Origin: a virus
DNA length: 64,000 nt
Virus record (IMG/VR): IMGVR_UViG_3300042448_002155
Span: 1 to 64,000 of that record
Reading direction: 5' to 3' (one strand)
Shown here: piece after piece, positions 46,201 through 62,800 of the stretch
How positions within the stretch are numbered: position 1 is the first letter of the stretch
How the letters are laid out: each line of letters begins with the position of its first letter
The notes under the pieces: generated by a model
Told to the model about the DNA's origin: nothing
What the model saw: the letters and a program-made list of their open reading frames with translations, nothing else
The model's database searches: none
Translations under genes and position numbers: made by a program

Positions 46201-49200
46201 TAAGAATTGTGCAAATCCCGTTCCATTTCCAGGATAAATATTTCTTTTATATAATTCAAGATCTACCTCTGCGCAAAAGTTGGACATTAGTTGTCCCATA
46301 CTTGTCATTATGGTGCCGTCTCCAAAAAATGTACTGACGGGATTTCTTTGGAATATATTTGTTGATAATTTAAATGTTGCTGCATTAGCTGCTCCGCCCA
46401 AATCGCCTTGTCCCGCATTGGAGTAGGCATTGGAAACAACATTTCTCAGTCCATCGGCTCTTTGTTTTTCAACTTCGTTAATTGGTTCATATAGCATTGT
46501 GCCGAAGTGTCTAATTCCAAAACGATTTTCGGAAAATATAGTTCCATTTGTCGCTCTAGCTAAAGCCTCTCTTGTTCTGGATGCGCCCATACTCAAAAGT
46601 CTAACCATTAAATCTCTTGGTTCAGAAAGATACATTCCAGTATCTACTCCACCATCAATTTTTCCAGAGTCACCTTTTTTATTTGTTGAGTTAACAACAG
46701 CGCCAAGTTCAATTGCGTCAGATTGGGCAGTAACAGTAACTATCTCTCCCTCTTCAACGTTGGTTATGACTCCGTTAAACAAAGTTTGCAAGGAATTTGG
46801 ATTTGATCCATAGCCTCCCCTGAGGTGAACTCTAACTCCTGGCTTTAATCTTATATTATTAATATCAACTACGTAGTCATTTCTCATTCCTGAGACAATA
46901 TTTTTAGCTATATTTAAAGTTCGGTCCAAGATAGCACTAATTCCGTCTATAGAGTTCAAGGGATCGCTATTAAAATCGTCATTTCGCGCATTAAATATAT
47001 CTGTAGATGGGCGTGTTGTTAGCTTTGAGTACATATTCGAAACTCTTAGTATTAGCGTATCTCCTAGTAAATCTTCAGATGATACAACTGAAAAATCTAT
47101 AACAGATTGAAGACCATAGAAATTATCAAACAGTTTGACTCCTGCGAACATTCCCCCTTCGTCTATTAGCCATAGCATGTAGGTCGGAAATGCTCTAAGC
47201 ATGCGCCCTGATATATCCCTGTACTGAACATCATTTAACATCTTTTCCATATGATTATTAAATGAGCCGTCGTAAGCTTTTTGATATTCGGACAATGGCT
47301 GAGCTCCACTAATTCCAGTCAAAGATTTATCACAACCAACGTCTGGAGTTTGCATGTCTTTCGTGTAATTGCTTTCAATTTTTTTTGCGCCATCAGATTC
47401 AATTGTAACATTAGTTCCATCTGCAGTAAGATAAAATCTTCCATTATCTTTATTTATATATCCGAAATGGGACCCCAAAGCGGTATACATAATTGCAGGT
47501 AGCTCGCTAGGATCATCTACCTCTGGATTGCCCAGTGGCATCAAATATATCATTTTATGAAATTCAACTTCGTCTGGATCAAAACTGACAAATTCCTCTT
47601 CGGCCAGTTTGCTGGTCGCTAATATAGTTTTGATCATATTTTCTGTTTCCCCGTTTGTCACTCCCACATTTCCTATGAGAAATGGTGATCCATTAATTTC
47701 TTCGAAAAGTGGGTCCCCTTCAGAGGATTGCGAAGCTAAAAATATAAAATCAGTTAATAAAGTATTTTTTGAAACGTCAGCGTTTGCTTCGTTGATTACT
47801 TCTTGAAAGATAGAAACAAAATTATGTGGACTAATTCCAGATTGATTTACGTAGTCTATTATTTCGTTAATTAAATCTTCATTGGTCTGTACCCTTGCAT
47901 CTACTGCAGCTGCGTTAGCTACGTTAGTTGTTGAATATCTTCTAAGAAAATTTCTAATTGTATATTTTACAGATTCTTTTTTTTGTGCTATTTCATTATC
48001 TGATCCCTGGAAGAAACCATCAGAGCTATCAAAAGTGAAATTTTTAGTTAAATCTATCTGAGTAGTGGTATTATTTATGATATCGCGATCAAACATTTCA
48101 AAACTTCTAAAATAGAAATCTGGATCTAGATTGCCAACAATATCTCCTTCCTTATTTTTGACGCCCAATGGAAGGTCTGGATAGGCATTGAATGATCCCC
48201 ATAGCTGCTTGATTCTTAGGAAGGGGTTTCTCTTTGTGCCAAAATGCTCAATTAATTCTGTCTGTTGCTTTGAGGATATTTTTTCTCTTTGTTGTTGGAA
48301 TATGTCAAAGTCTACCAAGCTCAACTGCACTGCATAAACGTGAGGAAAGTTAGGTATGGTGTCAACCTTATAGTTAAGGGGAAGAACATATTTAATTCCG
48401 CATAAAGCTGTTATGATATTTTTTATTCCCAAAAATCCTATAACACCAGTAGAATGCTCAAGCCTAGCTAACGCATTAGTGTGATCAAATACTGATCTAA
48501 TTTTTAATAATTCTTTTTCGCCAAAAACAGTCATCGATACATTAATATAGCTGTCTTTTCCTCCAATGTACTGATAACTTGGTTCGTCTTGCATTTGGAT
48601 CTGTAGCTTTGCTAGATTATTCCCCATTGATATACTAACGCCATTTACTATGGCGGTCTTTGGGTCAAGATCTACTCGATTCATTGGAACTTCCCACTCA
48701 TTGAAGTGGTAGTCTCCATCTTTTAATCTTGTTGCTTCCATCATATTTTTGATGAAGCCGTCAGTAAAAAATCTTTCATACATATTGACTTGAAAGGCTT
48801 CAGTAACTTGCTGTGCAATTTTTGCTCTATCTGGCTCTACTCCAGCGCTTTTAGTCTGTCTGACAAATTCCTCATCAATAAGTTTTTCTAAAATAGTTCC
48901 AGACGAACTAGCTTTAAGGTGAAGGTCTTTTTTGATATTGTTCAAACTGCCCTGAACTAATACTCCATTTATAAAGTATGACTCTGCCGTACTTTCATAC
49001 TGTGTAAAATAACCATTTACCCCGCGAAGCTCTATCTTTTCTTGATAATCTAAGAACCACCTTTTTTGTTCATTATCTAATCTTGTATCGTTATTGGATA
49101 TAAAGGATTGCGCTAGGTAAAGGTAAACTTTTTTATATTCATCAGTAGTCGAGATGCCAGCTGTCAGAATATCAATTGCTTGTCTAACCATATTCTTAAC

Positions 49201-51492
49201 AGATTTTGGAAAGTTTGATTCGGTAGCCATTGAATCAATATCTTTAATATCTTTTATTAAAGGAGTCTCTAAAGTTCTTTCTATCCCAAATGAATTAAGA
49301 AGTTTATCCCATAGCCCAGAAGCTGTATCGTTTAATATTTTTTCTTGTTCACTTCTAAAGGAAGTGTTGTCTGGTAAGAATATTTTTGTCTGTGTCTCAG
49401 CCGGAGTAAATAAAGTTATATTACTTCCGTCTCTCCATTGAGTAATTATGTTAGTCTCTAAAACGTCATTTTCAAAAGAATTTTTTCTTTCGATTTCAAA
49501 ATCTTCCCGCTGTTCCATCAAAGTAGATACGTCTACGCCTATATGTGTTCCATAGTCAATCACATCCACATTGGCCGTGTCGGAAACCTTACTGTCAGAC
49601 GTCTTCAATAAGAAGCTTTCGTTAACATATCTGTGCATTTCTCCAGCGGCTTTGCCCATATACTGACGATACTTACCCCAGTGTATTGCCTGATTAAAAT
49701 CTTTTAGCATCGGTAAGAATGGCTTGTGATTAAAGTGCACCATTTCCAAATCAATAACTAGAGCGAATGGATAATTTGGAACTGTTGATACTGACATATT
49801 AGAAAGTCCAACGGCAGTGATTCCATGTATTGAGTTAAGGTATTGATTCTTTACTGGTAGTATTGGCGAATATTTAAATGCTGCGACTAGACCTCTAAGG
49901 GAAGAAAGAAATTTATCTATTTTCTCTTCGTCATGTCCACCTTTTTTGAAGTCAATCTTAAAGCTTTCGTCTAGATTTATTGACGCTGCGTCATCTATGG
50001 ATAAGCCCCATATCTCTTCATAGTTAGGAAAGAAGAGCCGCATAGAAATAATGGTTTCTTTGTAACCTGCGTTAAACTTAGGAGTATTTTTTTGTCTAAT
50101 GGCTCCACCAGTTAATGATCCTGTTTTGTAATTAGAATTAACACTAATTGAAATCGGAGGAACGTAGAAGTTTGCTGCACCCAATCGAAGATGGAACATG
50201 TCTGGTTTTCTAGGTGGAATGTTTTCTCTAAAGGGAAAATCTTCAATTGCCTTTTTAATTTGTTGTGCGGTATTTTTTATCTGAAAAGCCAAGGTAAATA
50301 TTGGCCTATTATCTTTGGTGACTCCAAAAGCTCTTTCCAATGATATAATTGCATCAGCCTCATTGTTTAGCGTGTCTTCTGCTCCACCGCCTTGACCATT
50401 ATTGGAATAGTCCCCGACTACTGCTAGAGCATCAAAGACAAAGGTAACTAGGCTCGGAAAATAATAATTAATTATTGAAAATGATATTGGATCTCTTTGA
50501 AGGTTGTAAACTACTTCACTCAATATTGTTAACCACGGCGTATCTATTGCCGGATCAATATATTCATCCATTGATGTTTTAGCTGTTGCAACACTCTGCA
50601 GTCTTTTTTTTGCAAAGTTGCTAATTTCGTACGCGAATGACGCTAGGTACAGAAGTCCACTAGACTCTAGCTTAGCATAAACTGATTTAGAAGATGCCTC
50701 ATCCAAGCTTGAGGCAAGAGAGTTTAAGGAAAATACCCTACTAGTCGTCCCTTGAGCGTTGGCATCTGACACATAATCTTGACCTCTAGTCTCAGTAAAG
50801 TATCTACCTATTACTCCATTGATATCATTAGTCTCATTTACTGGATCGCTCCCGTATACATTATGTAAAAATATTTTAAATTCCGCTAAATATTCTAAGG
50901 TCAATTCGCCTTCAGTGTTGCCATCACTTAGTTCTTCATCTTTTTCTGATGTATTTATTTTTTCCGTTTGCTCAAGAGCAGCTAATTCCTCATCAGTTAT
51001 TCCGTCTTCACCTATATAACTTTTCCAGATATTAAGCCTGTCAAGAATAATTGACTTAGCTGTTTGCATTGTGATTTTTTTTGGAGAATTGTTAGGTAAG
51101 TAGGCGTAAAAAAACCAACTTAATGCTTCAGATAGTGTTGGAACATTTATGGTAGCATACCCGAAATTAACTGCCCATGTCTGAAATGTTTCAAGTACAA
51201 ATTCTAAATTTGAATCTTTATCTAAAACTTCGCAGTTTGCCAAACGAAGTATTGACAAATAGGCGTACTGGTCGCCTGTGCTTTTGAAGTCATCATCAAT
51301 TGCATAAATAAGGGCTTTTCCAGCTTGATTGTTATCGTAACCAATTATATCCGGATAATATCCTGGCAAAATTAAGAACGCGTACATATCGTTTTCATCG
51401 AAGCCCGTAATATCTTCAATTATTGAATTAATACGATCTTCATCTTCAGATAGATACTTTAAAAGATCTTTTGCTATTGGATTAATTGCCAT
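40228..51492 (-). CDS. Giant fused tail-tube initiator/baseplate hub protein with a C-terminal thermonuclease domain
   Basis: Two tube-like domains ending STVPNYP and DTIPNFP. Hub motifs VHLRGGYGSN...FNGVIT and LIGNPDIRPHD...FEVEQVVHHF..GYITTV. C-terminal NDGDT...VRFDGINTGE...DVFDRILGTV...LNWELVANNLA. Confidence 0.75.
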   Translation of the reverse strand: MAINPIAKDLLKYLSEDEDRINSIIEDITGFDENDMYAFLILPGYYPDIIGYDNNQAGKALIYAIDDDFKSTGDQYAYLSILRLANCEVLDKDSNLEFVLETFQTWAVNFGYATINVPTLSEALSWFFYAYLPNNSPKKITMQTAKSIILDRLNIWKSYIGEDGITDEELAALEQTEKINTSEKDEELSDGNTEGELTLEYLAEFKIFLHNVYGSDPVNETNDINGVIGRYFTETRGQDYVSDANAQGTTSRVFSLNSLASSLDEASSKSVYAKLESSGLLYLASFAYEISNFAKKRLQSVATAKTSMDEYIDPAIDTPWLTILSEVVYNLQRDPISFSIINYYFPSLVTFVFDALAVVGDYSNNGQGGGAEDTLNNEADAIISLERAFGVTKDNRPIFTLAFQIKNTAQQIKKAIEDFPFRENIPPRKPDMFHLRLGAANFYVPPISISVNSNYKTGSLTGGAIRQKNTPKFNAGYKETIISMRLFFPNYEEIWGLSIDDAASINLDESFKIDFKKGGHDEEKIDKFLSSLRGLVAAFKYSPILPVKNQYLNSIHGITAVGLSNMSVSTVPNYPFALVIDLEMVHFNHKPFLPMLKDFNQAIHWGKYRQYMGKAAGEMHRYVNESFLLKTSDSKVSDTANVDVIDYGTHIGVDVSTLMEQREDFEIERKNSFENDVLETNIITQWRDGSNITLFTPAETQTKIFLPDNTSFRSEQEKILNDTASGLWDKLLNSFGIERTLETPLIKDIKDIDSMATESNFPKSVKNMVRQAIDILTAGISTTDEYKKVYLYLAQSFISNNDTRLDNEQKRWFLDYQEKIELRGVNGYFTQYESTAESYFINGVLVQGSLNNIKKDLHLKASSSGTILEKLIDEEFVRQTKSAGVEPDRAKIAQQVTEAFQVNMYERFFTDGFIKNMMEATRLKDGDYHFNEWEVPMNRVDLDPKTAIVNGVSISMGNNLAKLQIQMQDEPSYQYIGGKDSYINVSMTVFGEKELLKIRSVFDHTNALARLEHSTGVIGFLGIKNIITALCGIKYVLPLNYKVDTIPNFPHVYAVQLSLVDFDIFQQQREKISSKQQTELIEHFGTKRNPFLRIKQLWGSFNAYPDLPLGVKNKEGDIVGNLDPDFYFRSFEMFDRDIINNTTTQIDLTKNFTFDSSDGFFQGSDNEIAQKKESVKYTIRNFLRRYSTTNVANAAAVDARVQTNEDLINEIIDYVNQSGISPHNFVSIFQEVINEANADVSKNTLLTDFIFLASQSSEGDPLFEEINGSPFLIGNVGVTNGETENMIKTILATSKLAEEEFVSFDPDEVEFHKMIYLMPLGNPEVDDPSELPAIMYTALGSHFGYINKDNGRFYLTADGTNVTIESDGAKKIESNYTKDMQTPDVGCDKSLTGISGAQPLSEYQKAYDGSFNNHMEKMLNDVQYRDISGRMLRAFPTYMLWLIDEGGMFAGVKLFDNFYGLQSVIDFSVVSSEDLLGDTLILRVSNMYSKLTTRPSTDIFNARNDDFNSDPLNSIDGISAILDRTLNIAKNIVSGMRNDYVVDINNIRLKPGVRVHLRGGYGSNPNSLQTLFNGVITNVEEGEIVTVTAQSDAIELGAVVNSTNKKGDSGKIDGGVDTGMYLSEPRDLMVRLLSMGASRTREALARATNGTIFSENRFGIRHFGTMLYEPINEVEKQRADGLRNVVSNAYSNAGQGDLGGAANAATFKLSTNIFQRNPVSTFFGDGTIMTSMGQLMSNFCAEVDLELYKRNIYPGNGTGFAQFLGGDLDDGWSTATSLVESDTKTLAGQRYLEAGTDRSWNRLIAEAQNGSVSSSNTIDSVVEDNKLVSAEGRAGAVKNALLGGFAAGIAAIPGVNVVAGLTGGAALGGLLRGRGGTNVFRTMGIIAPNADDDLSGFDEVSFRAQTYMRTVWDLFQICARLLPNYIVAVRPFEDRSTIFYGKPHWLYTSGVVPVTTGFPSVKKANELDLPGYPKHRSPDEDIQTIMNNINRQSNSMADYEAFKRSSELSDVMAALAKDQASSTGIYAPTERLTGKLLNFNSQLATKRVSKDSDGNDIVLSQLPASIGRVKMGFHLPIDGEKTYASLSVDHRQLDNIPPRFKYPYYTISEATVLDKKSYEVRDGGLFGNYVDDISGNQASTLSRVVDSVGGNFLGWFNPVSAAAKVVDSFEDGESNEAQLSNMSSKQNLQERISEANSKSFSIGGAALSANLIYFLQLEAEFLNETGITIKPSSGILELDRPLGFASFMAAVDSSVSDLIGLGQTTYSRMPLPSVESQGRPKEFVLVNSAKASTEENKDDFSFEYELSQPISYQEWGSPATAEEEQFYIAMRWPYKPDAVDASLERFKEVYGFEDLYGSAADYKKRKVLVFSPLTGRAVVCAPAYFLWGEGDDDVEAVVSPDAAWYLGTFVSTVDDKITIDGSQLAESLPAWANLSLHDGVGLENSILKKIEGETGLSTFPRDVDCFFGFVPDDTPLGVVSSGAAPVKRFFNDADKNSYIIGFGNFAIDDNGDANKFTASPKIIGPGDFGQPSVGDYFKLDGDKNSSLEEYSATNSEVTAYNYAYGGNILQSGDDPSYFQAIVDLDYDALDKGKLWDRLDAELYTTGDEETGSGRVGFAPVYSVLDSTSVEARSFYDENYDPNVSVIAGNGRTLSQASDIWDQFRFGYHTYDSVKAIFTRHYGMDADSTDPFPEEFRKILGGTNTTPFKKFSESIVSIPGLSTVGRSDATGVDELAILLGSDFFNAPDTTTDLGSGVGLNGASSRIEAVEFIRKNYIDYESKGIRGDAGIIQYFNSVITRSLDGIRSNFFESQVINNALSISIENKDDPAAAIKLAEVINTPKQLFLLMVGLFRQKLWSTGYGRAWLVLRPDRKRGFITPGGGGEDGQWSFKPVDKVFEAFISPYSQYAKNNDKFLKLLVSTKGEGSNSSTFIGGLDEDIGDFYSENIGPILGAIGDGLSSLLGMFKLSMMQMGYALSEVGNFSKQAHILNKVLNDSIYYSLGRPGTLLRAVDNPFTREYGEPVIEIRQPFQRIHYLSSFSHIISNQIQENLNNVSTVITAVSDGKNPVTVALDKGAPSERQTETTVETGLYYDNMVGSGFLGVLHPFMHPLESFRGYAKTLQGTPDELSARRVALSHLKESIKDIYGGELTLIGNPDIRPHDLVYLSDVYNRMYGIFEVEQVVHHFTSEMGYITTVTPNALVTVNDPSRWFMSSWLHSWLSMQNMRNDTRFYMDNIMASNTGINMGGNISIDALADSLSTQMIGGVQYTHGSSALMKDIMANQTALSLPDKALQEIESKGQGKASGADTIMQVVGASVARAVPIVGQLAWRGWTWLRDNVLDQHGCYVQYLNKNGQPMDAGLSYNQGMVVGRYHTKALLPGILGARTKVKTADGNTFIRSDDLLKSLGWQETEIKDLVRYTDYENALTHARVLSLSGLGPEKANLQTSLFKVIATVTKFNDGDTFDVEDVISGATFTVRFDGINTGETSPMKVGSIPDEPGADGTTITPISTPGGRAMLYTEAKLKNRVFVLRIKVTNKADTNVIFEAQFEPGATENRLENYTKDVFDRILGTVWYYQPESMINQIKDFVNQCFMLNRGKTIVTTDIDNPVTKEFFGKDFPGLGSIYKESPIFIKRSNIFDKIKSLDIQYAPPLSLSISALDDYGIPEQEFNRFYNDLVCFKVLEATYNKVDEWPTIFWDEYYEDGHPVSLNWELVANNLATVYTKQLLVESQSVISAEESALIPKQVTLNPGT

Positions 51493-51501
51493 TGCGCTTT
51501 C

Positions 51502-51951
51502 CTATTTAAACATCATATTGTTACGAATAATAGTTCTAAGTCTATCACTTGAAGAATCTTTCATAGTAATAGAACTATAGTTATCTATTATACTAGACTT
51601 TGTTTCTCTTTTGAATGAATCTAGAGTAAAACTTTGTTTTTTTGTTTGCAGGTCTTTATTGTATCTGGCTTGCTGATGTCTTTTTCCGCTATATCCACTG
51701 CCATTCATCTGGATATGCGTACTTGGAGCATTGTCTAGCCCCTCTTTGGAGTACTTGATTTTGTCAGATTTTCCTGATGACTCCATTTTTTGGCGCGATT
51801 CACCAACAACATTTTGCGATGGAGTTTTGCTTGAGACTATCTTTGCTGCGTACTTACTTGCCGTTAAGGATCTATGAGACGTATCTTTGGGTTGTTTAGC
51901 AGCAGCACTTAATGCTTTATTTTGGTCCTTGACATTTAAAATCATATACAT
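51502..51951 (-). CDS. Basic, probably disordered hypothetical protein
   Basis: 149 aa, K/S/Q-rich, between the polymerase-like gene and the hub gene. Confidence 0.6.
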   Translation of the reverse strand: MYMILNVKDQNKALSAAAKQPKDTSHRSLTASKYAAKIVSSKTPSQNVVGESRQKMESSGKSDKIKYSKEGLDNAPSTHIQMNGSGYSGKRHQQARYNKDLQTKKQSFTLDSFKRETKSSIIDNYSSITMKDSSSDRLRTIIRNNMMFK

Positions 51952-51957
51952 TTAACC

Positions 51958-54900
51958 TTAATAAGATCGGGCTATCGATTGATATGGGTCTCTTGCCACA
52001 TCCGGGATTCTATTATACATAGTACTGTTAATACTCCCATTAGTGAGTCCCGATGCTGCTGCACTAAATTTTTGTATTTGGTCCCTATCGCCAAATAGGG
52101 AGACCTTATAATTCATGCCCGCAGTAAAGCCTTGACCTCGTGCCTGTGGAATTTCTGACATTCTCTTTGGATAGTCGGACTCATAAGCTGATCCTCCTGG
52201 CAAAAGGGGTGGGCCGGACATGGCTTCCTGAGTGTGATCTTTTTTGTTTTGATATAAAAAGCTAGCTGCTATAGCTATTCCAGCACCTATGGCTGCATTG
52301 CGGACTCCGGGTTTGGCGAACTGCTCTGCTAGATATTGTTTGTTCATTCTTTTGTACATCGATTGTGAGGCAGTTGATTTCTTTACCTGCGACAGGTCCC
52401 TAAGGGTGTCTGCAACAACTCCTGGAGTTGTTTCTGTTATATCATCTGCGGAAGAAAGAATTCTACTTGAAGCTAAATCTCCATTTAAGAAGGCTGCAGC
52501 TTCCTTGTCTGCCTGTGCATTCAATTCAAAGGCAGTTTTATTTCTTAGCGCTCTAGCTATTTGCTGTTCTTCCATAGTGCCTGCCCCTTCCTCGGCCTGG
52601 CCTTTTATGATTGATGAAATAACAGAAGAAGTTTTGCCTGTTCCAAAAAAGTCATCTGCAAAATCTAAGTCCAGCGCATCATCCATGATGCCTGCCTTTT
52701 GAGTATCGGACATATTGCCAAAAATGTCATCGACGTATTGTCTTAGTTGAAGGTTCTTAGTTGACTTTTCGTATATAGCCTTTTGATCTGACATTTGCAT
52801 ATACCTATGAAAGAGATTAAGGCTCTCATTGTCTATGTTTGTTGATGAGTCTGGAAGTTTTGTAAAAAACTCTGGAGCTATTTTTCTTCTTAATCCGCCA
52901 TATTGAAGGGCGCTAGTTAGTTCATACCCAGATATGCCCATTGATTTTTGCACGTCTTGAAGATTTCTTAGTAAATTATCTCCCAGTTCTATTTTTTTTA
53001 TCTCTAATGCTATTTTTGATGATTCTGCAAAAGAGCCACTTTGTATTTCGTCAGCTAAACTTTGTACTGCTTTTATTCTTTCTTGATTTTCGTCTAATAT
53101 TTTTTCTGCTGCAATTCGTGATCTTTCGCTTGTCCTGGAGACTAGCTCTTGTTCTTGACTGATTTGCGCATTTCTTCCCAGTTTTGCCATGGCTTCTAGG
53201 TAATAGTTTGAAGTATTAGCTACGTCTACTATCTCAGAGAGTGATCCTTTTGCTATAATTCCTCTGGCCCTTAAAACTTTTTCTACTTCGTCATATTGTT
53301 GAGATTCTACGGCTTTATTAATGTCAGTTACATCTGCAGCGTTGTCTGCCTCCAACATCCCTGCTGATAAACTTCTTGCAAAATTTATAAGATCATTCTT
53401 ATTCATTTTTTTACTAGTTAAGAAAGCTTCATCGAGTACAAGGGCCTTACGTGGATCCATTGGATCCATTCCATCAAGTTTGTGTTTTTGCCTTAAGTAA
53501 CCAAACATTTTTCCATACTGTTGCATTGTTTTGTCGCCAAAATCATTTAGGTTAGTTTCTTTTCCGTATAATTCTTTTAGTACTTTTACTCCCAAGTTTG
53601 GATCTCCATTTGCAAGCTTAGTAGTTTGCCCCAACAGCATTCGTCCAGATGTAAAAGTTTGCGTCATGTCAATGACGGTTTCAGCTGGAGTAAAAGCTAA
53701 CATTAGCTTCTTATTTATCAAGTCCTCTTGTATGCCAGGAATTGTCCCCAGCATGTCTTCCATCTGCCTTAGGCCATGTCCAACCACAGTAGCTCTATTA
53801 ATGTACTGTCCAAGGATGTTTGTATTTTCTATTGCTGAGTCAATACTCTTATTTATGAAAGATTTTCCTAGTGCAATACTTTTTTGTTCAGGGCTAATAT
53901 TTAACGCATTGACTGTCTTATAAAACTTATCTGATAAACTTTGTATTTCCCTATCGGCGTCTTCAAGATCAACTCCGCCTAAATTTAAACGATTTTTTCT
54001 TTGATCTTTTAATTCTTTCGTCATCTGTTGAAGTTGACTTTTTTGCGATCTACTTATCAGGCTCATGCTATCTAGACTTGATAAGACTTCTTGTTCGAGT
54101 GGCATTTCTGCCACTTCTGCCACTAGCCTCTGGAACCCAAGTGACATTAGTCCTGGATCTTGGTCACCTAAAGCGATTAATTTTGTTGCAGAGAAATGAG
54201 TAACTCCTTCTGTGCCATCGTCTAAAGTTCCAAAAACTCCTAATTTTTTAAAAAAGTTTTTATTAAAATCTCGCATTCCGCCAGTTCTAACACCATTGTC
54301 GAACTTAGCGCCGCTTAAGATGTCATTAACCTCAATGGTTAATTGTTCAATTGTACCCATCATTGAACTATTTATGACATCATCTGAAACTCCAGATCCG
54401 TCAAATGCCATTTTTAATCCAAGAAATTTAGAATCTCCTTTAGCCATCTCATCCAAAGTCTTCATAAAGAATCTATTGCCACCAAAAATTTCACGATAGC
54501 TTTCTATGTCCTCAAACCTAGTAAGGCCAATAACTTCGCCCATTGAAGTAGGCTGACGGACCATGGCGGCACCTAGTCTGCGCTTACCTTCAGACATATA
54601 GGTTCCAAGTATAGGCAATCCCTTATCGTCTAAGTCGAAACCTCCTAGTGCATGATAGAACTTTCTAATGTCATCTTCATGAAATAAAATATTATGATTA
54701 GAAACTCTGAACTGCGCAATCTGTGCGGAAATTTCATCGCCAGCTTCACCTATCGTTACCTTAATCGGCTTTCCTGATAATATCTTTGTTGGGTCAATGT
54801 CAATTGACTTTCCTGATAGCGTCTTTCTTCCAGTAGTTCCAGTCATTGCATTTGCTTCCGAGTTAAGAGCAAATCTATATACATCACCAACCACTGGAAG

Positions 54901-56811
54901 TCTCTGCCCATTTTTTGTTTTATACAACTCAGCTTCATAGTATTTTTTTAACAGATTTAAATATTCTGGAGAATCATTAATGCTTATACCACTTCTATGC
55001 AGATCTAAGATTCTTTGCGCAAAGTCTCTATTTAACATTTTTGAAAATTGCTGAGGTTCCGCAAACTGTTCAATATCTTGTTGTGCAAGTTTTTTAATCC
55101 CCTGCAAAACTTCACTGTTATCGGTTAAGCGCCCACTTTCCAATATCCCCTTAAATTCATCTAACACATTTCTTGAGTACTTGCTGGATATTGCTATATC
55201 TTCTGTGTTTCCAAATATTGCGTCATGGAAAGAAGCCAACATTGGGTCCGTGTACACTCTAGAAGTGGATTCAGCTAGTCCGCTTAGATTTAATACAGGA
55301 GTACCTGCTGCTATTCCTGTTTCTTTCTTTAATCCACTAATTGATGTTATGATTCCATACTTCTCAAATCTTTTTGAAAAATTTTTAAATTGAGCCGCTG
55401 ACTTATAAGAGTAATCAACACCGCCAATTCGCACAGAACCTCTAACCGTACCCTGAGATAAACCTATGGCCTCTCCGTCTTTTATATTTAGCTCAGATAA
55501 CTGCCTTCTTAATTCAACCTTACGAATCATTGATTGTTCATCCCTATTTTGGGTTAGACTCCCCAATTCTTGGTGCAAGGTTTTTCTTAATTCACTTGCA
55601 AATTTTGTATTGATTAACGATGAACCATCTCGACCTTTCTCCAACTCATCTAGCAGGCTCTTAATAACTCCGCTTGTTTCATCATCAATTAAACTTGAAT
55701 TGTTAGGGTCGTTTAGGAACTTTTTTATTTCATTGGTGCCGAATATGCCCTTATCGGAGTCATTCTTTCCGTCTCTAATAATATCTTTTACGAGATTTTC
55801 TAGTGAATTAAGTATTTTTGTTTTATCTAAATTTGACGTCGGTGTTGTCCGAGATTTAATTATTTCATCTAATACATTATTAACATAACTGCTTGCTTCT
55901 TCAACCGCTGTTCCGCCACCCTTATACTGAAAAGATTCTTCCATAAATGCTCTTACGTCAAATTGCTTTGTGCCTAGGGCAAAGTTCTTAGCGGTGTCCT
56001 GATCAAAGCCTAAGGCTATTGTCTCAAACACATTGTCCATAGCAAGAGTGGCTTGTGATAATTCATCCATTATTCCTTTAGGCCCAAAAACTGTAGGCTT
56101 GCTCAGGAACGATTTCATGAGGTCTCCGGATATGGAAATATCTCTTGGAGAAAGAACACCTTTTAATCTTTTTGGAAGCTTTGCAAATAATTTAGATAAG
56201 CCTTCGTTTCCACCTTTTAATGCTTTATCTAATTCGTCTGGAGTGAACAAAGGTCTTCCGCCTTTGGACATTGCCTCTAGGGTTTCCTCCATTGACAATA
56301 CTCGATCACCTTGGCGAAGACTAAGAGCCATTCCACCCTCATCGGTAGGAAATATTAATCCAGCCTTTTGATTTTTCATGTCCTGAAGGAATTTTCCAAT
56401 ACTTTCAGAGCCAGCTTCTGCTTTATGAATTTTGATTTGAGCACCGTATTGCTGATCTCCAGTCAACCCTAATGCTTCATTAATATCCATGAGCACCTGC
56501 CCGTAACCCCTGTACGTGGAAGGGCCAAGAGTTCCTGGCTCGATATTTACTAGCTCAGTCAATCCAAAGCTAGATACATGCTGCGCAACCTCTTCTATTG
56601 AATCGGATACGAACTGTGCTGATTGGCCTGCCTTTAGCCTTAGGGGGTCAATGTAGGTTGATTTAAATTTTAATTTTCCGTCAACATCAACAACTTCTAT
56701 CAATCCTTTTTGGCCAAGATAGCTTTTACTTAAAGCCTGTTTGGCTAAAAGTAATCGTCTCTCCCTTGGCATGGGAGATAGGTATGACTGAATATAATCA
56801 GATACAGACAT
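51958..56811 (-). CDS. Putative virion-packaged single-subunit two-barrel RNA polymerase (YonO/QDE-1-like), atypical active site
   Basis: Ordered motifs KLPKRLKGVLS, RDGSSLINTKFA, TVRG...YKS...ISGLKK, ILFH...LGGFDLDDK, MVRQPTSMGEV, LGQYIN and VIDMTQT, plus a C-terminal hydrophobic helix. Located in the tail module. Confidence 0.6.
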   Translation of the reverse strand: MSVSDYIQSYLSPMPRERRLLLAKQALSKSYLGQKGLIEVVDVDGKLKFKSTYIDPLRLKAGQSAQFVSDSIEEVAQHVSSFGLTELVNIEPGTLGPSTYRGYGQVLMDINEALGLTGDQQYGAQIKIHKAEAGSESIGKFLQDMKNQKAGLIFPTDEGGMALSLRQGDRVLSMEETLEAMSKGGRPLFTPDELDKALKGGNEGLSKLFAKLPKRLKGVLSPRDISISGDLMKSFLSKPTVFGPKGIMDELSQATLAMDNVFETIALGFDQDTAKNFALGTKQFDVRAFMEESFQYKGGGTAVEEASSYVNNVLDEIIKSRTTPTSNLDKTKILNSLENLVKDIIRDGKNDSDKGIFGTNEIKKFLNDPNNSSLIDDETSGVIKSLLDELEKGRDGSSLINTKFASELRKTLHQELGSLTQNRDEQSMIRKVELRRQLSELNIKDGEAIGLSQGTVRGSVRIGGVDYSYKSAAQFKNFSKRFEKYGIITSISGLKKETGIAAGTPVLNLSGLAESTSRVYTDPMLASFHDAIFGNTEDIAISSKYSRNVLDEFKGILESGRLTDNSEVLQGIKKLAQQDIEQFAEPQQFSKMLNRDFAQRILDLHRSGISINDSPEYLNLLKKYYEAELYKTKNGQRLPVVGDVYRFALNSEANAMTGTTGRKTLSGKSIDIDPTKILSGKPIKVTIGEAGDEISAQIAQFRVSNHNILFHEDDIRKFYHALGGFDLDDKGLPILGTYMSEGKRRLGAAMVRQPTSMGEVIGLTRFEDIESYREIFGGNRFFMKTLDEMAKGDSKFLGLKMAFDGSGVSDDVINSSMMGTIEQLTIEVNDILSGAKFDNGVRTGGMRDFNKNFFKKLGVFGTLDDGTEGVTHFSATKLIALGDQDPGLMSLGFQRLVAEVAEMPLEQEVLSSLDSMSLISRSQKSQLQQMTKELKDQRKNRLNLGGVDLEDADREIQSLSDKFYKTVNALNISPEQKSIALGKSFINKSIDSAIENTNILGQYINRATVVGHGLRQMEDMLGTIPGIQEDLINKKLMLAFTPAETVIDMTQTFTSGRMLLGQTTKLANGDPNLGVKVLKELYGKETNLNDFGDKTMQQYGKMFGYLRQKHKLDGMDPMDPRKALVLDEAFLTSKKMNKNDLINFARSLSAGMLEADNAADVTDINKAVESQQYDEVEKVLRARGIIAKGSLSEIVDVANTSNYYLEAMAKLGRNAQISQEQELVSRTSERSRIAAEKILDENQERIKAVQSLADEIQSGSFAESSKIALEIKKIELGDNLLRNLQDVQKSMGISGYELTSALQYGGLRRKIAPEFFTKLPDSSTNIDNESLNLFHRYMQMSDQKAIYEKSTKNLQLRQYVDDIFGNMSDTQKAGIMDDALDLDFADDFFGTGKTSSVISSIIKGQAEEGAGTMEEQQIARALRNKTAFELNAQADKEAAAFLNGDLASSRILSSADDITETTPGVVADTLRDLSQVKKSTASQSMYKRMNKQYLAEQFAKPGVRNAAIGAGIAIAASFLYQNKKDHTQEAMSGPPLLPGGSAYESDYPKRMSEIPQARGQGFTAGMNYKVSLFGDRDQIQKFSAAASGLTNGSINSTMYNRIPDVARDPYQSIARSY

Positions 56812-59800
56812 TATCTAACACCGGCATTAATATCAATTTGCTCCGATCCAAAAGGATTCATAACTGGGATAACAGACCCTGATACTCCCATGCCACTCAT
56901 GAGTGATCTCAATCTTGATGCGGTGTCCGTTTGAGATCCAGATCCACCACCAAATCTAGGATAGCTAGGATTAGATAAACTAGCTTCCTGTAGCTGTTGA
57001 GGATAGTAACCCATCTGCGACATTTCTAGACCCATGCTTTGACCAATTTTTATTTTAACTTGATCCATACTAGTGTTTGGGTGCCAACCCTCCCAGCTTT
57101 CATCTGGTAGTTCGTGTCTAGCAAAGTAGTCAGTTAACTCTGGCCTCTTCTCTACATCCATACCCCAGGCTGCTTCATATATTCTTCTTTCAAGCCTTCC
57201 TGCTGTATCTAATATTCTTTTTCTTTCCTCTACGGGAGCATTAATCATGGCTTTAAAATGTTCTCTTTTTCTTTTGGGTATAGATAGAGAAAGCGATTCT
57301 ACATCAGTTCCATATTTTCCTGAATTTATATCTTCTATTGGAGCGCCGTACATTGTTCTCTTAGCCGCCGATTCATACTGGAAAGCTGCTCCCTTATCTC
57401 CAGCCATGTTAGCCATCTTAGCTAATCTAGTATTTTTAGTATAATTTAAAATGTCTGCATATTCTTCTAACGCAAGTTCTTTCTTTCTCGTTCTTGGTAT
57501 AAACTTTTCTCCAGTAATGGCCTCATTGGCCGAATGCAATGATGAGACGGTAAGCCCTGTTATTGCTCCTAATGTGGACATCACCAATTTACCCTTAGAG
57601 GTTTCTCCGAAAAATGAACCAGCTACTGCTAATGCAGCTGTTGCAGATATAGGATCTCTATTGCCAGCCTTATTTATCATTGGGGCTATGAAACTTTCAA
57701 AAGGTCTTTGCCATTCTGGGAAGGTTGCCCCGTATACGTTATTTCTTTCCCAATCCTCAGTTGCAGTTTGTTTGTTTACAAACTTCTTATTAATAAAAGT
57801 GTCTTTATGGGCCAGCATTTCGCCCATTCTGCCAAGAGCATGTACATTTGGATTAACGCCCATTTGCTCTGGAGTACTATTCTTGTATTTATATTCAGTA
57901 AATTCTTTTTTCTGTTGTAATGACGCTGATCGTTCTCTGAGTTCTTGAACTTTTAATTTATCTGCGGGGCCGTTCACCATCGAGTCTATGGTTTTATCTA
58001 GCGATCTGAATTGCTTTGAATACGGGGCAACATCGCCAAGTATCTTATATTGATCCATAACCCCATAGCGACCAGAGGCATCGGAGCTGAGTCTATTTAG
58101 TCTTTCATAGGCTACTCCTGGTAGTCTAAGTTCTCCTTCTGGGACTTTTGCAAACGGGTCACCCGTGGTAAAGTCAGTAAAGTATTCTGACCCAGGAAGA
58201 AATGGATACTGTCTTCCCATTGTATTCTTAATTGGGTTTATATAATCAACGCCAGATCTTTCTTTGGGTATAAATCTTCTTGTTATTTCGGAAAACTCGA
58301 TAGAACCTATTTGGCCTCCGCCTAACATAGGCACGTCCCCCAGGCCTCCTAGGTTCAGATCCCAAAATTGTCTTCCAGTTCCATACGCTTTAGAGGCTGA
58401 TTGTAATACTGATCTTTGAGGTGCAAAATCTCTTTGGCCTAATCCAAAACTTTCTCGCACACTGCTTGCTGCGAAACCATAAATTCCTAACATTTCTTGA
58501 GCCCTATATCCAAATTCTTGTGCTTGGATTTGTGGGTTACCAACACTCAATGGACTGCCAGCAGGTACGATTCGTTGGGGCATAATTCCAGATACTTTAG
58601 GTGGGCCATAAGCCATCTGCATGTATTGATTATTTATACCTGATATTGTATTTCTAGTTTCATTTCTTGCGGTGTTAAGGGATCCAGCCCTTCCTGCTAA
58701 CATTGCGTTAGAAGACGCCTGTGCGCCGTTTGGAGGGCCTCCAAAGCCTCCCATGGTCATTCCACCAGCAACTCCGCCCATACCGCCAAAAACGCCACCT
58801 CTGCCGTTAATGTATGGGTCTGCATTATATGCTCCAGACTGACCAGCCGGTGCATAGTTAGCTAGGCCTGCTGCCACTTCCTGTTGGTGCATCATCGTTT
58901 GAGGTTTCAGTATTTTACCGACAGTAGCATTTAAGGCTGGAACAAGAGGTCCGAATGGTCCACTGAAATATTCGCCAGATACAGGATATGGCCTATCTTC
59001 AAAATGCTTTCGCTCATAGCGATATGGATCAAATGGCCTAAGCGGAGAAATATCAGTATGGAACAATGCTCTTTCTATTGGGCTCCCCATATTATCTGAG
59101 GTAAACATTGCTCCAGCTTCTAATTTTCTGTATATACTTGGGCGGTAGTACATAATTTTTCCACCCATAAATGGAGTATTGCCTAACGGCCAAAACCGGC
59201 CTTGCCTAATAGCAACTTCGCCCTCAAATAATTGTTCTTTCTTTTCTTGAAAATTCATTCCACCGGGAGTAATGCCAGAACCAAGAGCTTGCAGATTTCC
59301 TACTGCTTTAGCAGCTCCGCCGATAAAGAATGGCGAGTAAACCCTTTCTCCCCTATCGTCCTTTTCATTGACCATGCCACCGATAGTTCTATCGACGGTC
59401 ATTACTCCTAAGCCAGCGCCATAAAGTGGTAGAACTCTTTTGCCCACCATTCCACTTGTAAATAGACCTATGGGAGAACCATATTGTGAGACATTAAGCT
59501 GTAAGCCAATAGTTCCAAAATATTTATTTAATCTTTCAATGCTATGCGACATTGCCGTAGATGCGCTGGAGTAGCTTTCTACGCTACTGTAGGTATTAAT
59601 TCCTAGTGCGCTTTTAACAGCGCCATATGGATTTTTGGCAAAGACGGTTCCAAAGGTTGGAACTAGAAGAGTGTCAGTTGCTGGACCCATAGCTGACCCA
59701 AGAGCATCACTAGATGATTCCGATATTCGGTAGGGGGCTGTGCTAAGTCTTGGATAAAGTGCTTTTTTGATTAATCCAGACTTTCCTACTTCTCCTATTC

Positions 59801-62800
59801 TTTGTGAGGTTCCAGTGACAAAAGGATCCAGTAAACCTTCAGCGCCCTTAAGAGTCTCTGCAGTGTTTCTTAACGCTCCTCTCTGTACTGCCAATTCGCT
59901 CAGTCCAGCTTTATTTGCTCTCATGGAACTTATATTGAATAGCGTAGCGAGTCCGGCGGCTTGTGCTTCTGCTAGCTGGCCAGGTGGCAGTTCTTTAGCC
60001 ATTGCGGTAAGAACATTGTTTAGCTCAATGAAAGTATTGGAGAAATTTTTTCCAGCTGCCCCAGCTGAGCTCGATGCTAGTAGCTCATTTCTTTGAATTA
60101 AATATTTATATAACTCGTCCTTGAGTGCATCTTCTCTTGTTAAGATTGTCGGGCTTGTAGATCTAATATGAGATCCTGAAAGTAGGTCATCTTTTTGTAG
60201 CAGATTTTGGATCCTGCTACCCGCCTGCTCCAGCGTCTGAGTTTCGTATCCCATTTGTCTTATTCTTGAAGCGTCGTGAAACCTTGCCTGAAGAACGTCG
60301 TTAGCAAATTGCTGAGTATCTTGAACATTATTAAGAGAAGAAACTCTTCTACCATTAAATAATCCTATGCCAGAATCCTCAAGGCGCGTCATTACTCTTC
60401 TTGGGAATGGATTTTTGAAGGATTGATTTCTGAAGTTTTCAAATGCACGCAACATTTGGCCTTCAGTAATCATTTCCTGTCCAGTGCCGGGAGATATACC
60501 TGTAACTGCGCCAGTATCATCTGCGAAGTTTAATTTGAACTGCTTACCCTTGGCTTCGACTGTTTCATTCTTAAGAAGACGCGCAAAAAAGGCTGGGTTT
60601 TCTGGATCAGTTTTTCTTTTTGCAAATCTTGACAACATGCGCCCAATTGAATTGGGTTGCTCATAATCAACGTCAAACTTCTGCCTGAGGGCCAGTTCTC
60701 TTTCTGGACTAACTCCAAGCCTCTTTAATAGATTTGATCTATTTTTACCATCAGCAAATTCTAATTCATTAAGCGATTTAGCCTTACCCTCTGAGGCTGC
60801 GTTTCTAGCAGACCTTGAGAGCATTTCGTTACTTCTTCTTGAGAGTGGCCTATAAAAACCTTGTAGTTCTTTTGCTTCGAATTCACCCGTAAGCGATCCC
60901 TGCTTAAAAGCCATTACATTGCTTTTACTTTTACCTCCACCATATGATAGATAAAAATCTGCGCCTTGTTCTCCCTTGGGAAGGAATGGTTGAGATATCT
61001 TGCCCTGTTGTATTTGAAAAAATGTACTTCCTGACATTTCATCAAATGAACCCTTTCCAAGCATTCGTGCTGGGTTGAAGTTGACTATGGGAATTTTTAA
61101 ATCATTAGCTAAAAAGTTACCAATGTTTGATACAGATTGTTTTAGTCCAGAAAAATCTAATACATTTCCAGATCGAGTAGTGTACATACCTTTCATTACG
61201 GAAACGCTAGATGATGTAGTGGTCGGGTCTGCTAACGCCATCCTCTTAGAGATTTCACCAAGTGCGACTCGTTCGTCTGCCCCAAGCCCCGCAAACAGAC
61301 CTTTGCTAACTCCTTCATCTAGGGTCATAGCTTTTAGTCCGAATACATTAAAGCCACCACTAAATATACCCGTACCTATTTGTTTTTCTCTAACTAAGAA
61401 ACTTCTTAGGCTGTCTAAATTGTCGGTATCTAAACCTCTTTTTCCTAACCTTTCAGCCAGTACTGCATTAGATACTTCTCTGCCGTTTGCATCTTTTAGA
61501 TTAATGCCTAATCTCTGTGCTGATCTTTTAATTAAAAAATCTTTTTTAGAAACTGATAAATTATTTAAATCTGCAAAGTCTTCAAAGTTTGCTTTTTTAG
61601 TTTTTAGAACTTTTGACGCTGCTCGAGGAATTCCATTCTCTAGTACAGAGTTCCATCCCTTTTCTGCCTTTGACATTATCGCGGCTTGAAATTCTTTTCC
61701 TTCAAATATTCTATTAGTATTTTCTATAGATGTTTTCAGGGCGTCCGTACTAAGAAAGCCTCCCTCAATCGGATCATCTACTGTTGTTGAAAATCTTTTT
61801 AATATTTCATCAAAAGCGTCGTCGCCCTCTTTTATGATTTTAGTTTTGCCAATAGTTATTTTTCTGCTAGTTTCCGTAGCTGAACTACTAACACTTATAT
61901 CATCTATGAATTTTCCTAACGTTTCAGAAAATCCCTGTCGGCTAGAGTTAGGTGTTAAATCTAATATTTGCTTTTGAAGTAGCTTCTTATATTCTACCTG
62001 CTCTATTGATCTATGGAATTCTGAACCACTAAACGACTTACTTCCAACTCCTCCGCCTCCAGTATTAGCTATCTTATTAGCTAGCCTAGATGTACCGCTA
62101 GAAAAGTTTGCTTGCACAGACTTAACTATGCCGACTAGGTCATCGGATGTCATTCCATCTTTACGTAGTGCCCCGCCCTTACGTAGTGCTGCATCAAAGC
62201 TTAACGCTTTATTTACTACGTCATATCCAATTCCAGTTTCTTTGAATTTGTTTACACCCTGATTGACTGCTCCGCCGACTCCCCTTAGTCCGGGTATTAG
62301 ATCTACATAACCAAAATTACCATCTGCCCCATCACCAAACGCTAACCTTCGACCAAATATAGCAGCCCTCTTTAAGGTATTATCATCTGCAGAGTTCGCT
62401 AAAGCCTGTCTAGCGTTGGTATTTCTTACGCTATGCAGGACTTCAGTTATGTTTGGACGGTTTTCGTAATACTTAGTCGTTGCTGCTCTAATGCCCGCTG
62501 AGGTTTGAGAGGAAACTTTTAAAGCCTGGTTTGTTATTTTACCTAAGTCATGACCTACTTCTCCAAGAATATCATCTAAGTCAGTGAATCGCTGAGCTGC
62601 TTTTGTCTTAAAGGAACTAACCCCAGACGACCTTGCAACGTCTCCCATTGATTGCCTGAAGTTATGAAGAGATGATCTTGCATTGCCTGCTGCTGCCCCA
62701 GCTAACTCAAATGGCAGGATCATAGTAGCTAAAGCTATTGATGATTCTTTAATAAAATCTGTAACAACATCTACTGGATTGTACCAATTAACCTTAGGCT

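Follow-up and report, generated by a model that had tools for sequence, protein, structure and literature searches.

A candidate virion two-barrel RNA polymerase with an inverted order of catalytic motifs in an uncultured phage of about 200 kb

The locus analyzed here raises the question of whether a phage protein, in which the catalytic motifs of a two-barrel RNA polymerase stand in an unusual order, can be such a polymerase. Two-barrel polymerases perform transcription in all cells. Eight of their active-site residues, namely the barrel B Asp, the barrel B basic residues, the R-x-P and the three Asp, are called universal, and their order is treated as universal as well (PMC2919709). An open reading frame at positions 51958-56811 (minus strand) of the analyzed 64,000-nucleotide stretch (the window) of an uncultured phage genome of ~200 kb encoded a 1617-aa protein, P0001. 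The original prediction had claimed for this protein a QDE-1/crAss-type two-barrel fold with a full set of active-site residues, and all of the motifs quoted in it were present at their places when the sequence was re-read. With the literal D-x-D-x-D signature absent and the R-x-P out of place, P0001 might use a different chemistry or have lost it altogether.

P0001 matched no Pfam family at E ≤ 0.1, including the eukaryotic-type RdRP family PF05183, and no PHROG. Searches of PDB sequences by phmmer and by profiles (single protein, A1, A3 and A4) returned noise only, a tblastn search of 50,697 phage records with P0001 was blank, and neither A4 nor A3 gave a significant hhalign match to the lone phi14:2 gp66 sequence. 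Weak neighbours with a 'tape measure' flavour (0.82-0.85) were obtained from the ESM Atlas for the polymerase and for the upstream ORF alike. No account of the P0001 family was found in literature searches, and its motif strings were absent from the supplements of the P23-45 paper. The family comprised 127 clusters at 50% identity. The whole gene was assigned as a candidate virion two-barrel RNA polymerase on the basis of the ORF, the family clusters, AlphaFold models and fold searches.

Two AlphaFold models were built from 40-45 sequences, a core model of aa 385-800 (416 residues, pLDDT 77) and a large model of aa 130-1150 (1021 residues, pLDDT 82, pTM 0.83). When the core model was compared with 48,161 PDB representatives in an unbiased search, only four chains reached Z ≥ 5, and three of these were two-barrel RNAPs. 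The top three were QDE-1 (Z 6.7, 254 residues), maize RDR2 (Z 5.5, 234 residues) and P74 gp62 (Z 5.5, 191 residues). In a second comparison, ranks 1-14 were all occupied by RDR2, QDE-1 or P32 gp64 (Z 5.1-8.1, 192-251 residues aligned), and below rank 14 the score fell to Z 4.2 over 72 residues. The large model was aligned to QDE-1 and RDR2 over 412-474 residues, and its Foldseek ranks 1-12 were all QDE-1, phi14:2 gp66 or RDR2, with E values of at least 0.035. In the unbiased search with the large model, a long helical hairpin (model residues 786-858) drew so many trivial matches that they dominated the result, and QDE-1 was the sole extended match. In BFVD, three uncharacterised phage proteins matched at ~1e-7, and ranks 4-6 were large uncharacterised crAss-like phage proteins. 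The fold comparison by AlphaFold, Foldseek and PDB searches, which had been proposed as a check of the original prediction, returned single-chain two-barrel RNAPs as the only extended matches. The fold scores were middling (best Z 8.1) and would persuade chiefly when taken together with the pattern of conserved residues.

Barrel B, a connector and barrel A were arranged in the models as in the solved two-barrel members. The predicted first barrel (beta-subunit-like, DPBB-B) covered aa 394-520 (55252-55632, minus strand, as for all parts of P0001 given below). It was recognized by structural alignments and by D395-G396, Q453, R457, K470 and K495, which were invariant or nearly so. The D395-G396 motif lay at nt 55588-55632, and the QDE-1 side of the core-model alignments began at residue 701, just before D709. 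The connector (aa 521-628, 54928-55251) was helical in both models and lay inside the range aligned to QDE-1/RDR2. The second barrel region (beta-prime-like, DPBB-A; aa 629-766, 54514-54927) was delimited by predicted strands, conservation and covariation and contained R646...E652, R702, the Asp loop and the R-x-P hairpin; strands were predicted in both models at aa 636-651, 683-687, 694-704, 707-710, 730-740, 743-753 and 760-765. The catalytic-type Asp loop D726-L-D728-D729 occupied 54625-54636 (wider motif 54619-54648) and, as judged from alignment end points, fell within ~1 residue of the Asp loops of QDE-1, RDR2 and gp66. The Pro-gate-like R-x-P loop, R752-Q-P754...E759, was located at 54535-54558 (wider motif 54532-54564).

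Further motifs were found on both sides of the barrels. The N-terminal basic motif K211/K214/R215 (56149-56181) was invariant in alignments A1 and A2 and may be a nucleic-acid contact. Both residues of a bridge-helix-like motif, G1001 and N1005 (53797-53820), as well as D1048 of the trigger-loop-region motif (53656-53679), were invariant in the same two alignments. The alignment of the large model to QDE-1 reached ~residue 1150, and the order of G1001...N1005 and D1048 matched that of bridge helix and trigger loop. By motif order only, D1048 may be equivalent to QDE-1 D1116 (PMC9508822).

The conservation was counted over 178 distinct homologous sequences, some of which were only ~20% identical overall. 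D726, D728, D729, R752, P754 and E759 were invariant (178/178), and K470, which had been singled out for this check along with the three aspartates and the R-x-P, was kept in 176/178. K495 was retained in 177, R646 in 172 and R457 in 161 of the 178 homologues, and D395/G396 were present in 168/168 homologues covering these positions. On these counts, the conservation of the motifs is far beyond chance. Barrel B carried an invariant Asp and basic residues (D395, R457, K470, K495) in an order and spacing that fitted QDE-1 (PMC9508822), and the three invariant Asp lay in a loop structurally equivalent to the Asp loops of QDE-1, RDR2 and gp66. As read from the alignments, the invariant positions correspond to the eight universal two-barrel residues (PMC2919709). 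Since the catalytic-type residues were invariant at an otherwise ~20-35% identity, selection would have acted on chemistry and not on shape. We concluded that, very probably, P0001 is a far-diverged two-barrel RNA polymerase, the claimed fold and active-site set being supported by both the fold matches and the conservation among 178 sequences.

In place of the D-x-D-x-D signature, D726-L-D728-D729 was found in 178/178 homologues. Distant members of one sister family retained D-Q-D-G-D, which aligned to D-x-D-D with a one-residue gap. Because these paralogues keep D-x-D-G-D, the loop in the window was interpreted as having lost its Gly, and the earlier claim of a missing Gly agreed with this gap. 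An alignment of F-D-L-D to F-D-I-D of gp66, in which the first Asp would be lost and a new one gained, was set aside in favour of the Gly deletion, as the within-clade alignment to D-Q-D-G-D was more reliable.

The second deviation concerned the position of R752-Q-P754, which sat 23 residues after D729 and not before the Asp loop. The canonical R-x-P strand lies ~35-45 residues before the loop, and no conserved R or P was found at that position of the P0001 family alignment. The list of motifs given for the known families in the original prediction was compared with the gp66 and gp96 sequences and with two papers. The R-x-P precedes the loop in the sequences of phi14:2 gp66 and P23-45 gp96 and in QDE-1 (PMC2919709, PMC9508822), so the reversal claimed for P0001 was borne out. 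As far as motifs go, such a catalytic order is not known from any characterised two-barrel polymerase. Two sister families in related phages shared the inverted order, with the Asp loop first and the R-x-P second. The columns invariant across the P0001 family and both sister families were catalytic-type residues only. An hhalign comparison of the virion family with a sister family was collinear over all motifs and weak alone (E = 0.0062, probability 6%).

From the motif order, a circularly permuted barrel strand had been inferred. It is possible, though it falls somewhat short of probable, that the strands of the second barrel are all present in the usual order and that the R-x-P hairpin is an added element, which would be a functional replacement and not a permutation. 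Both models predicted a strand at aa 683-687, the normal position of the R-x-P strand, and all sequential structural alignments to QDE-1/RDR2 passed the Asp loop and ended at aa 737-739, in accordance with an added hairpin. However, aa 657-693 were the most variable part of the domain, with many insertions and deletions and a low model confidence, and in the sister family of 858-889 aa the segment from the first strand to the hairpin preceding the Asp loop was hardly long enough for two strands. The DCA restricted to the second barrel had an effective number of 122 sequences and was too weak to fix the strand order, but its pairs F701-A748, F710-A749, I715-A748 and F718-I761 linked the hairpin to the barrel core. 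This covariation would place the R-x-P hairpin inside the barrel domain and argues against an addition. The DCA pairs between invariant columns (Asp loop versus R-x-P) and the window z-scores containing them were discarded as pseudocount artefacts. Moreover, R-I-P-N-x-G of a sister family was nearly identical to R-I-P-N-Q-G of gp66, which suggests homology of the strands rather than convergence.

The surroundings of the gene were examined in the window and in related loci. Immediately upstream, a 2207-aa ORF (56811-63434, minus strand) occupied the tape-measure position, and its stop overlapped the polymerase start, as read directly from the DNA. This ORF had no Pfam or PHROG match, and its identity as the tape measure is a weak lead from the position and a language-model score of 0.82. 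Downstream, a 149-aa ORF (51502-51951) was followed by a 3754-aa hub-like giant protein (40228-51492), both on the minus strand and in an order conserved in related loci. These downstream partners (40228-51951) matched phrog_20474 at 9.7e-120 and the tail phrog_52, and a baseplate wedge gene (35394-36563) lay downstream of the hub-like gene. Among 66 related IMG/VR loci fetched, the order of ~2200 aa, polymerase, ~150 aa and hub was found in 15 of the 16 with ORFs listed. The P0001 gene was thus placed in a structural (late) module, between the gene in the tape-measure position and the hub. No fused polymerase forms longer than 2830 aa were found, which is weak evidence. Some relatives had the gene in a split form, which could reflect a programmed +1 frameshift or two separate genes.

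The hydrophobic helix that had been claimed for the C-terminus was found at aa 1506-1520 (52252-52296); it was the single hydrophobic (membrane) helix read from the sequence and was conserved in the family. Basic residues preceded it and few followed, and by the positive-inside rule the polymerase would face the inside of the cell and the tail end the outside. The C-terminal domain (aa 1533-1617, 51961-52215), with a G-P-P-L-L-P-G-G... block and invariant columns clustered at 1533-1574, had no family match in Pfam or PHROGs. The conserved position in a tail/baseplate operon, the stop/start overlap and the membrane helix are a context consistent with packaging into the virion and injection. We proposed that P0001 is probably an active nucleotide polymerase of the single-chain two-barrel kind, with DNA-dependent RNA synthesis as its most likely activity, and that it is carried by the virion and injected.

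An active two-barrel polymerase that is not an injected early transcriptase, such as a late intracellular enzyme, a primase-like replication RNA synthase or an RNA-templated enzyme, was considered unlikely. Some members of a sister family carried PIF1-type helicase domains as fusions, as is typical of primase-helicases, and QDE-1-type enzymes accept RNA and single-stranded DNA templates (PMC9508822). However, nearly every listed relative kept the gene between the tape-measure-position gene and the hub, with the upstream stop overlapped in P0001. The conserved membrane helix and the tail-end domain would be needless for a soluble replication enzyme, and the window contained a separate primase-like gene at 786-1997.

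Among the plus-strand genes at the end of the contig, another polymerase was found that had all of these motifs, and up to three polymerase paralogues were present per genome. No beta-prime-type RNAP gene was detected in this record or in four relatives of 92-100% completeness, whereas the positive control was detected; a search for T7-type RNAP was blank, but so was its control. We tentatively suggest that freshwater-type phages of ~200 kb could form an unrecognised clade with as many as three two-barrel polymerase paralogues, of which one lies in the tail module and the others (one or two) at different places in the genome, all with the R-x-P strand moved past the Asp loop.

The best structural matches among known systems were QDE-1 and the eukaryotic RDRs (PDB 2J7N, 7Y7P, 7EU1 and 7W82), with Z up to 8.1 over 229-254 of the 416 core residues. 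As in P0001, a single chain leads from barrel B through a helical connector to barrel A. The counterparts in barrel B of Rpb2 are D837, K979 and K987. P0001 had counterparts of QDE-1 D709, Q736, R738, K743, K767, R962-x-P964 and D1007/1009/1011, and the spacing of K470-K495 was 25, compared with 24 for K743-K767 of QDE-1 (numbering of PMC9508822). Unlike these enzymes, with which it shared no detectable sequence similarity, P0001 had the D-x-D-D loop with the R-x-P after it, ~270 residues separating the Asp loop from the bridge-helix motif, a long helical tail, the membrane helix, the C-terminal domain and a location in a phage tail operon.

Like P0001, in which the core is predicted, the crAss-like virion RNAP gp66 of Cellulophaga phage phi14:2 (PDB 6VR4) is a giant protein of a virion module that contains a QDE-1-like two-barrel core. 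The Asp loop of gp66 likewise has a non-Gly residue (D-F-D-I-D), its motif series matches that of P0001 bar one swap, and 258 residues were aligned to the core model at Z 3.9. A G-x-x-x-N of gp66 at 1547-1551, inside the published bridge helix 1529-1559, may be compared with G1001...N1005. The role proposed for gp66, transcription of early genes after injection, is the same as that proposed for P0001. In contrast to P0001, R1322-I-P1324 of gp66 comes before D1361. Also, gp66 belongs to a podovirus-like crassvirus whereas the P0001 phage has a baseplate, and the two proteins had no sequence or PHROG relationship.

In Thermus phage P23-45, as in the P0001 phage, a two-barrel polymerase is tied to the tail-tape region and has membrane segments after it. 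The structural matches of P0001 were Z 4.4-5.5 for gp96 and Z 5.4-6.6 for gp64-type proteins. The P0001 polymerase has a gene of its own, located after the one in the tape-measure position, whereas gp96 is a tape-measure-fused vRNAP with a canonical R741-N-P743 followed by D779-F-D-G-D; the host lineage and the phage type differ as well. The second polymerase of the P0001 phage recalls the P23-45 pair of virion and related non-virion enzymes, the latter being gp64 nvRNAP (PMC10770324). The coliphage N4 vRNAP, a giant virion-carried polymerase injected for early genes, is a functional analogue only, as its T7-like fold is unrelated and its Foldseek rank of 24 was at noise level. To our knowledge, YonO of the SPbeta prophage is not a virion or tail-module protein. 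By description, YonO and other phage or plasmid RNAPs share with P0001 the single chain, the extreme divergence and the eight active-site residues (PMC2919709, PMC5467207).

We suggest that P0001 would be made late alongside the tail proteins, be packaged in the virion (in the tail lumen or the baseplate) and enter the cell with the DNA, where it would transcribe the first phage genes. It may remain attached to the site of entry through its C-terminal membrane helix, an anchoring also proposed for P23-45 gp96. Its chemistry would be that of QDE-1 and cellular RNAP: two Mg ions would be held by D726, D728 and D729 plus D395 of the first barrel, the product and NTP phosphates by R457, K470 and K495, while the ribose and the minor groove would be read by R752-x-P754. 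The wiring would differ in the Gly lost from the Asp loop and in the R-x-P loop, supplied by a hairpin after the Asp loop instead of a preceding strand. That P0001 is a structural tail or ejection protein of polymerase shape which no longer polymerises is very improbable: although the canonical D-x-D-G-D has changed, the Pro-gate loop stands elsewhere and the active site of crystallised gp66 could not bind Mg, so that such sites can be distorted, all catalytic-type residues of P0001 were kept in the 178 divergent sequences and formed the only invariant columns that the family has in common with the two sister families.

P0001 would be the third independent QDE-1-like polymerase in an injection apparatus, after those of crass-like phages and of Thermus phage P23-45, and its phage, unlike those two cases, has baseplate genes typical of contractile tails. 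The P0001 family and the two sister families sharing the swap offer a direct test of how far rewiring of the catalytic barrel is tolerated, and P0001 is a new data point on the evolution of the barrel fold by duplication and permutation. If the proposed clade is real, it would provide the first example in nature of a permuted strand in the catalytic double-psi barrel, and its phages, seemingly without RNA polymerase, would run a virion and non-virion transcription system of their own. A dependence on host transcription was concluded for one freshwater Bacteroidota phage lineage (PMC12619734). Large uncultured phages judged to be dependent on host transcription for want of an RNAP homologue may have been misread.

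The candidate virion RNA polymerase was encoded by a minus-strand ORF of 1617 aa at window positions 51958-56811, and every motif quoted in the original prediction was found at its place there. The protein had no match in Pfam, PHROG, PDB sequences or cultured phages, and no paper describing its family was found in a literature search. One database contained 55 clusters of its metagenomic family at a 90% identity threshold, and a second database 127 at 50%; the members were mostly 1550-1750 aa in length, and distant ones had an overall identity of just ~20-25%. When 27, 40 and 45 diverse members were aligned, the columns without variation nearly coincided with the residues named in the original prediction. 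Among 178 distinct sequences, D726, D728, D729, R752, P754 and E759 were unchanged in all, K495 was present in 177, K470 in 176, R646 in 172 and R457 in 161, while D395-G396 was present in every sequence covering those positions. This motif pattern exceeded chance.

Eight residues common to all two-barrel polymerases were listed by Ruprich-Robert and Thuriaux, the QDE-1 versions being D709, R738, K743, R962, P964, D1007, D1009 and D1011 (PMC2919709). In the QDE-1 complex structures, cations A and B are held by four Asp, the product and NTP phosphates are held by R738, K743 and K767, and R962-x-P964 is the 'Pro-gate loop', by which the 2'-OH and the minor groove are read (PMC9508822). The invariant set of the polymerase family mapped onto all of these residues, and the K470-K495 spacing was 25 as compared with 24 for K743-K767 in QDE-1.

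An AlphaFold model of aa 130-1150 (pLDDT 82, pTM 0.83) was aligned to QDE-1 and RDR2 over 412-474 residues with Z of 7.0-7.6, and ranks 1-12 of its Foldseek search were QDE-1, phi14:2 gp66 and RDR2 (E ~0.04-0.15). The core model of aa 385-800, built with 45 trimmed homologues (pLDDT 77), was compared with 48,161 PDB representatives without a pre-filter. Just four chains reached Z 5, three of them being QDE-1, maize RDR2 and a Thermus-phage gp64-type polymerase. In a second comparison of the core model, ranks 1-14 were all two-barrel polymerases (Z 5.1-8.1, 192-251 residues aligned), below which the list dropped to a 72-residue helical match. The alignment end points placed the Asp loop within ~1 residue of those of QDE-1, RDR2 and gp66. 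The core model was also matched at ~1e-7 by three uncharacterised 'uncultured Caudovirales' proteins of BFVD (851-1141 aa), whose lengths were compatible with the sister families described below. Taken alone, the fold Z-scores of these models were middling. The two-barrel identity was accepted because the extended matches were exclusive to such polymerases and the residue pattern agreed; a two-barrel fold with an intact active site is highly probable.

A second two-barrel-type polymerase gene was located outside the window, near the end of the phage contig (L002:7768-11214, genome 110267-113714, plus strand), where it was open at the contig end. Full-length members of this second family were ~1470 aa, and their alignment showed the motif series of the 1617-aa polymerase again, as D-G, R...K-G, a Lys motif, H-D-x-D-D, R-x-P-N-G-x-G-E ~47 residues on, G-x-x-C-N and V-D-x-x-Q-Q-G. 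The phage gene itself carried H-D-x-D-D and then R-I-P-N-G-x-G-E. The two families were collinear over all motifs in hhalign, at a weak E value of 0.0062. By eye, the N-terminus of the L002 gene resembled a 2-oxoglutarate/Fe oxygenase (H-x-D...H) and a SLOG/DprA-like module, for which Pfam was blank; in some relatives, PIF1-type helicase domains were instead fused to the polymerase part. The same plus-strand block encoded a full RecA (PF00154, 1.3e-117; L002:526-1623, genome 103025-104122) and, at L002:4636-5379 (genome 107135-107878, plus strand), a rhomboid-protease-like match that was weak and sub-threshold (2.7e-06; 28.1 bits, curated cut-off 22.6).

A third family, of 858-889 aa, was present in relatives that were 92-100% complete (193-216 kb), with members at L079:559-3132, L080:889-3555 and L081:1139-3757 of relatives G001, G003 and G004, respectively. 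Its motifs were H-G-G-H-D-E-D-D and, ~25 residues on, R-S-P-N-G-x-G-E. No member was detected in the 113.7 kb of assembled sequence from this phage (54% complete). In a 10-sequence alignment across the three families, the invariant columns were those of the Asp triad, the Arg and Pro of R-x-P, and a single Gly.

The placement of R-x-P after the Asp loop, as originally predicted, held: the invariant R752-Q-P754...E759 lay downstream of D726-D729, the reverse of the normal order. In the fetched sequences, R1322-I-P1324 precedes D1361 in phi14:2 gp66 and R741-N-P743 precedes D779 in P23-45 gp96; in QDE-1, R962 precedes D1007 (PMC2919709, PMC9508822). Since the inverted order was common to all three families, it was considered a character of the clade rather than a peculiarity of a single gene.

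We proposed, with slight preference, that this R-x-P strand takes the structural place of the canonical strand. R752-Q-P754...E759 was modeled on a hairpin past the strand that succeeds the Asp loop. The expected site of the normal R-x-P strand, aa 657-693, was the most variable and gap-rich stretch of the domain, with low model confidence. Alternatively, an add-on hairpin might supply an analogous Arg and Pro, a reading judged only slightly less probable. A predicted strand at 683-687 occupies the canonical slot, and sequential structure alignments all stopped at aa 737-739, leaving the hairpin without a QDE-1 counterpart. However, the 858-889-aa family had almost no sequence between the first barrel strand and the pre-Asp-loop hairpin, so that closing the barrel would scarcely be possible if the hairpin after the loop did not contribute. 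The R-I-P-N-x-G of one sister family was also nearly identical to R-I-P-N-Q-G of gp66, which suggests that the strand is homologous rather than reinvented. Finally, mean-field covariation (178 sequences, effective number 122) recovered the predicted hairpins and linked the hairpin after the loop with the core of the barrel through F701-A748, F710-A749, I715-A748, F718-I761 and G747-G762, although packing across that core would fit these pairs too. Couplings between invariant columns were discarded as artefacts.

The Asp loop of the polymerase family was D-x-D-D. Distant sister-family members had the canonical D-Q-D-G-D, and their joint alignment with D-x-D-D needed one gap, at Gly; the loss of this Gly, put forward in the original prediction, was therefore the better reading. 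Matching the F-D-L-D core to F-D-I-D of gp66 with the first Asp lost was dropped, as the paralogue alignment favoured the missing Gly. The D-Q-D-G-D proteins included distant second-family members at L076, L077 and L078 (relatives G005, G003 and G004), in which R-S-P-N-G-P-G-G followed the loop and Gly replaced the otherwise invariant Glu of the R-x-P motif. Because they kept D-Q-D-G-D yet had R-x-P after it, the R-x-P swap was considered older than the Gly loss. It was also observed that E652, six residues past R646 on the first strand (aa 646-652, window 54856-54882), co-varied with G724, two residues before D726 (aa 722-731, window 54619-54648). Wherever residue 724 was Thr (15 sequences), the Glu was displaced by one position. 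This suggests that the E652 carboxylate packs against the Asp loop, where it may be an extra metal or water ligand.

The window belonged to a 113,714-bp IMG/VR phage record, 54% complete per CheckV, with almost every gene on the minus strand. The region at 1-14 kb carried replication genes (ribonucleotide reductase, DnaB-like helicase, primase), and a long tail/baseplate block occupied 15-64 kb. At window 56809-56813 (minus strand), the TAA stop of the preceding 2207-aa ORF and the polymerase ATG had one base in common (T-A-A-T-G). Such an overlap is a typical translational-coupling junction and suggests that polymerase translation is coupled to that giant ORF, a putative tape measure without a match in Pfam and PHROG searches. 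A few bases past the polymerase were a 149-aa ORF and then a 3754-aa hub-like protein (window 40228-51492, minus strand) with strong lysis and tail PHROG matches, namely a 1954-position PHROG annotated 'endolysin' (9.7e-120) and tail-protein segments near residue 3130-3200. ORFs were listed for 16 of 66 related IMG/VR loci. The order of two small ORFs, a ~2200 aa protein, the polymerase, a ~150 aa protein and the hub (~2180 to >3170 aa) was found in 15 of them; in the exception, L058, the block was fragmented into many shorter ORFs.

In five related contigs (L025:9950-14624, L027:9575-14366, L029:9950-14765, L030:9581-14324 and L050), the polymerase gene was split just past the second barrel, the downstream part being shifted to the +1 frame and overlapping by 25-70 nt. 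The split position was identical across diverged sequences and could reflect programmed +1 frameshifting, a genuine division of the gene like that of split beta-prime subunits, or an assembly error common to these contigs.

From context and analogy, an injected virion enzyme is plausible but unproven. The C-terminal 110 residues were strongly conserved and contained a single hydrophobic helix (aa 1506-1520) with a basic run ahead of it and few basic residues behind. This would fit a polymerase on the cytoplasmic side whose tail end remains in the envelope, the arrangement proposed for P23-45 gp96 (PMC10770324). A beta-prime-type RNAP gene was not detected in this record or in four 92-100% complete relatives, in a search whose positive control worked; a T7-type RNAP search was blank, but its control was equally blank and it carried no weight.

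As in crAss gp66 and P23-45 gp96, a QDE-1-like single-chain polymerase would be part of the injection apparatus, and as in P23-45 a second, non-virion paralogue was present. By sequence, the polymerase falls outside every described family. The literal D-x-D-x-D signature and the R-x-P position of the superfamily were absent, while the residues themselves were retained. In a 2025 survey of the 'moraphages', large freshwater phages of 200-307 kb predicted to infect Bacteroidota, the authors reported detecting no gene for an RNAP or for a tape measure (PMC12619734). If the moraphages are related to this phage, that conclusion would need another look.
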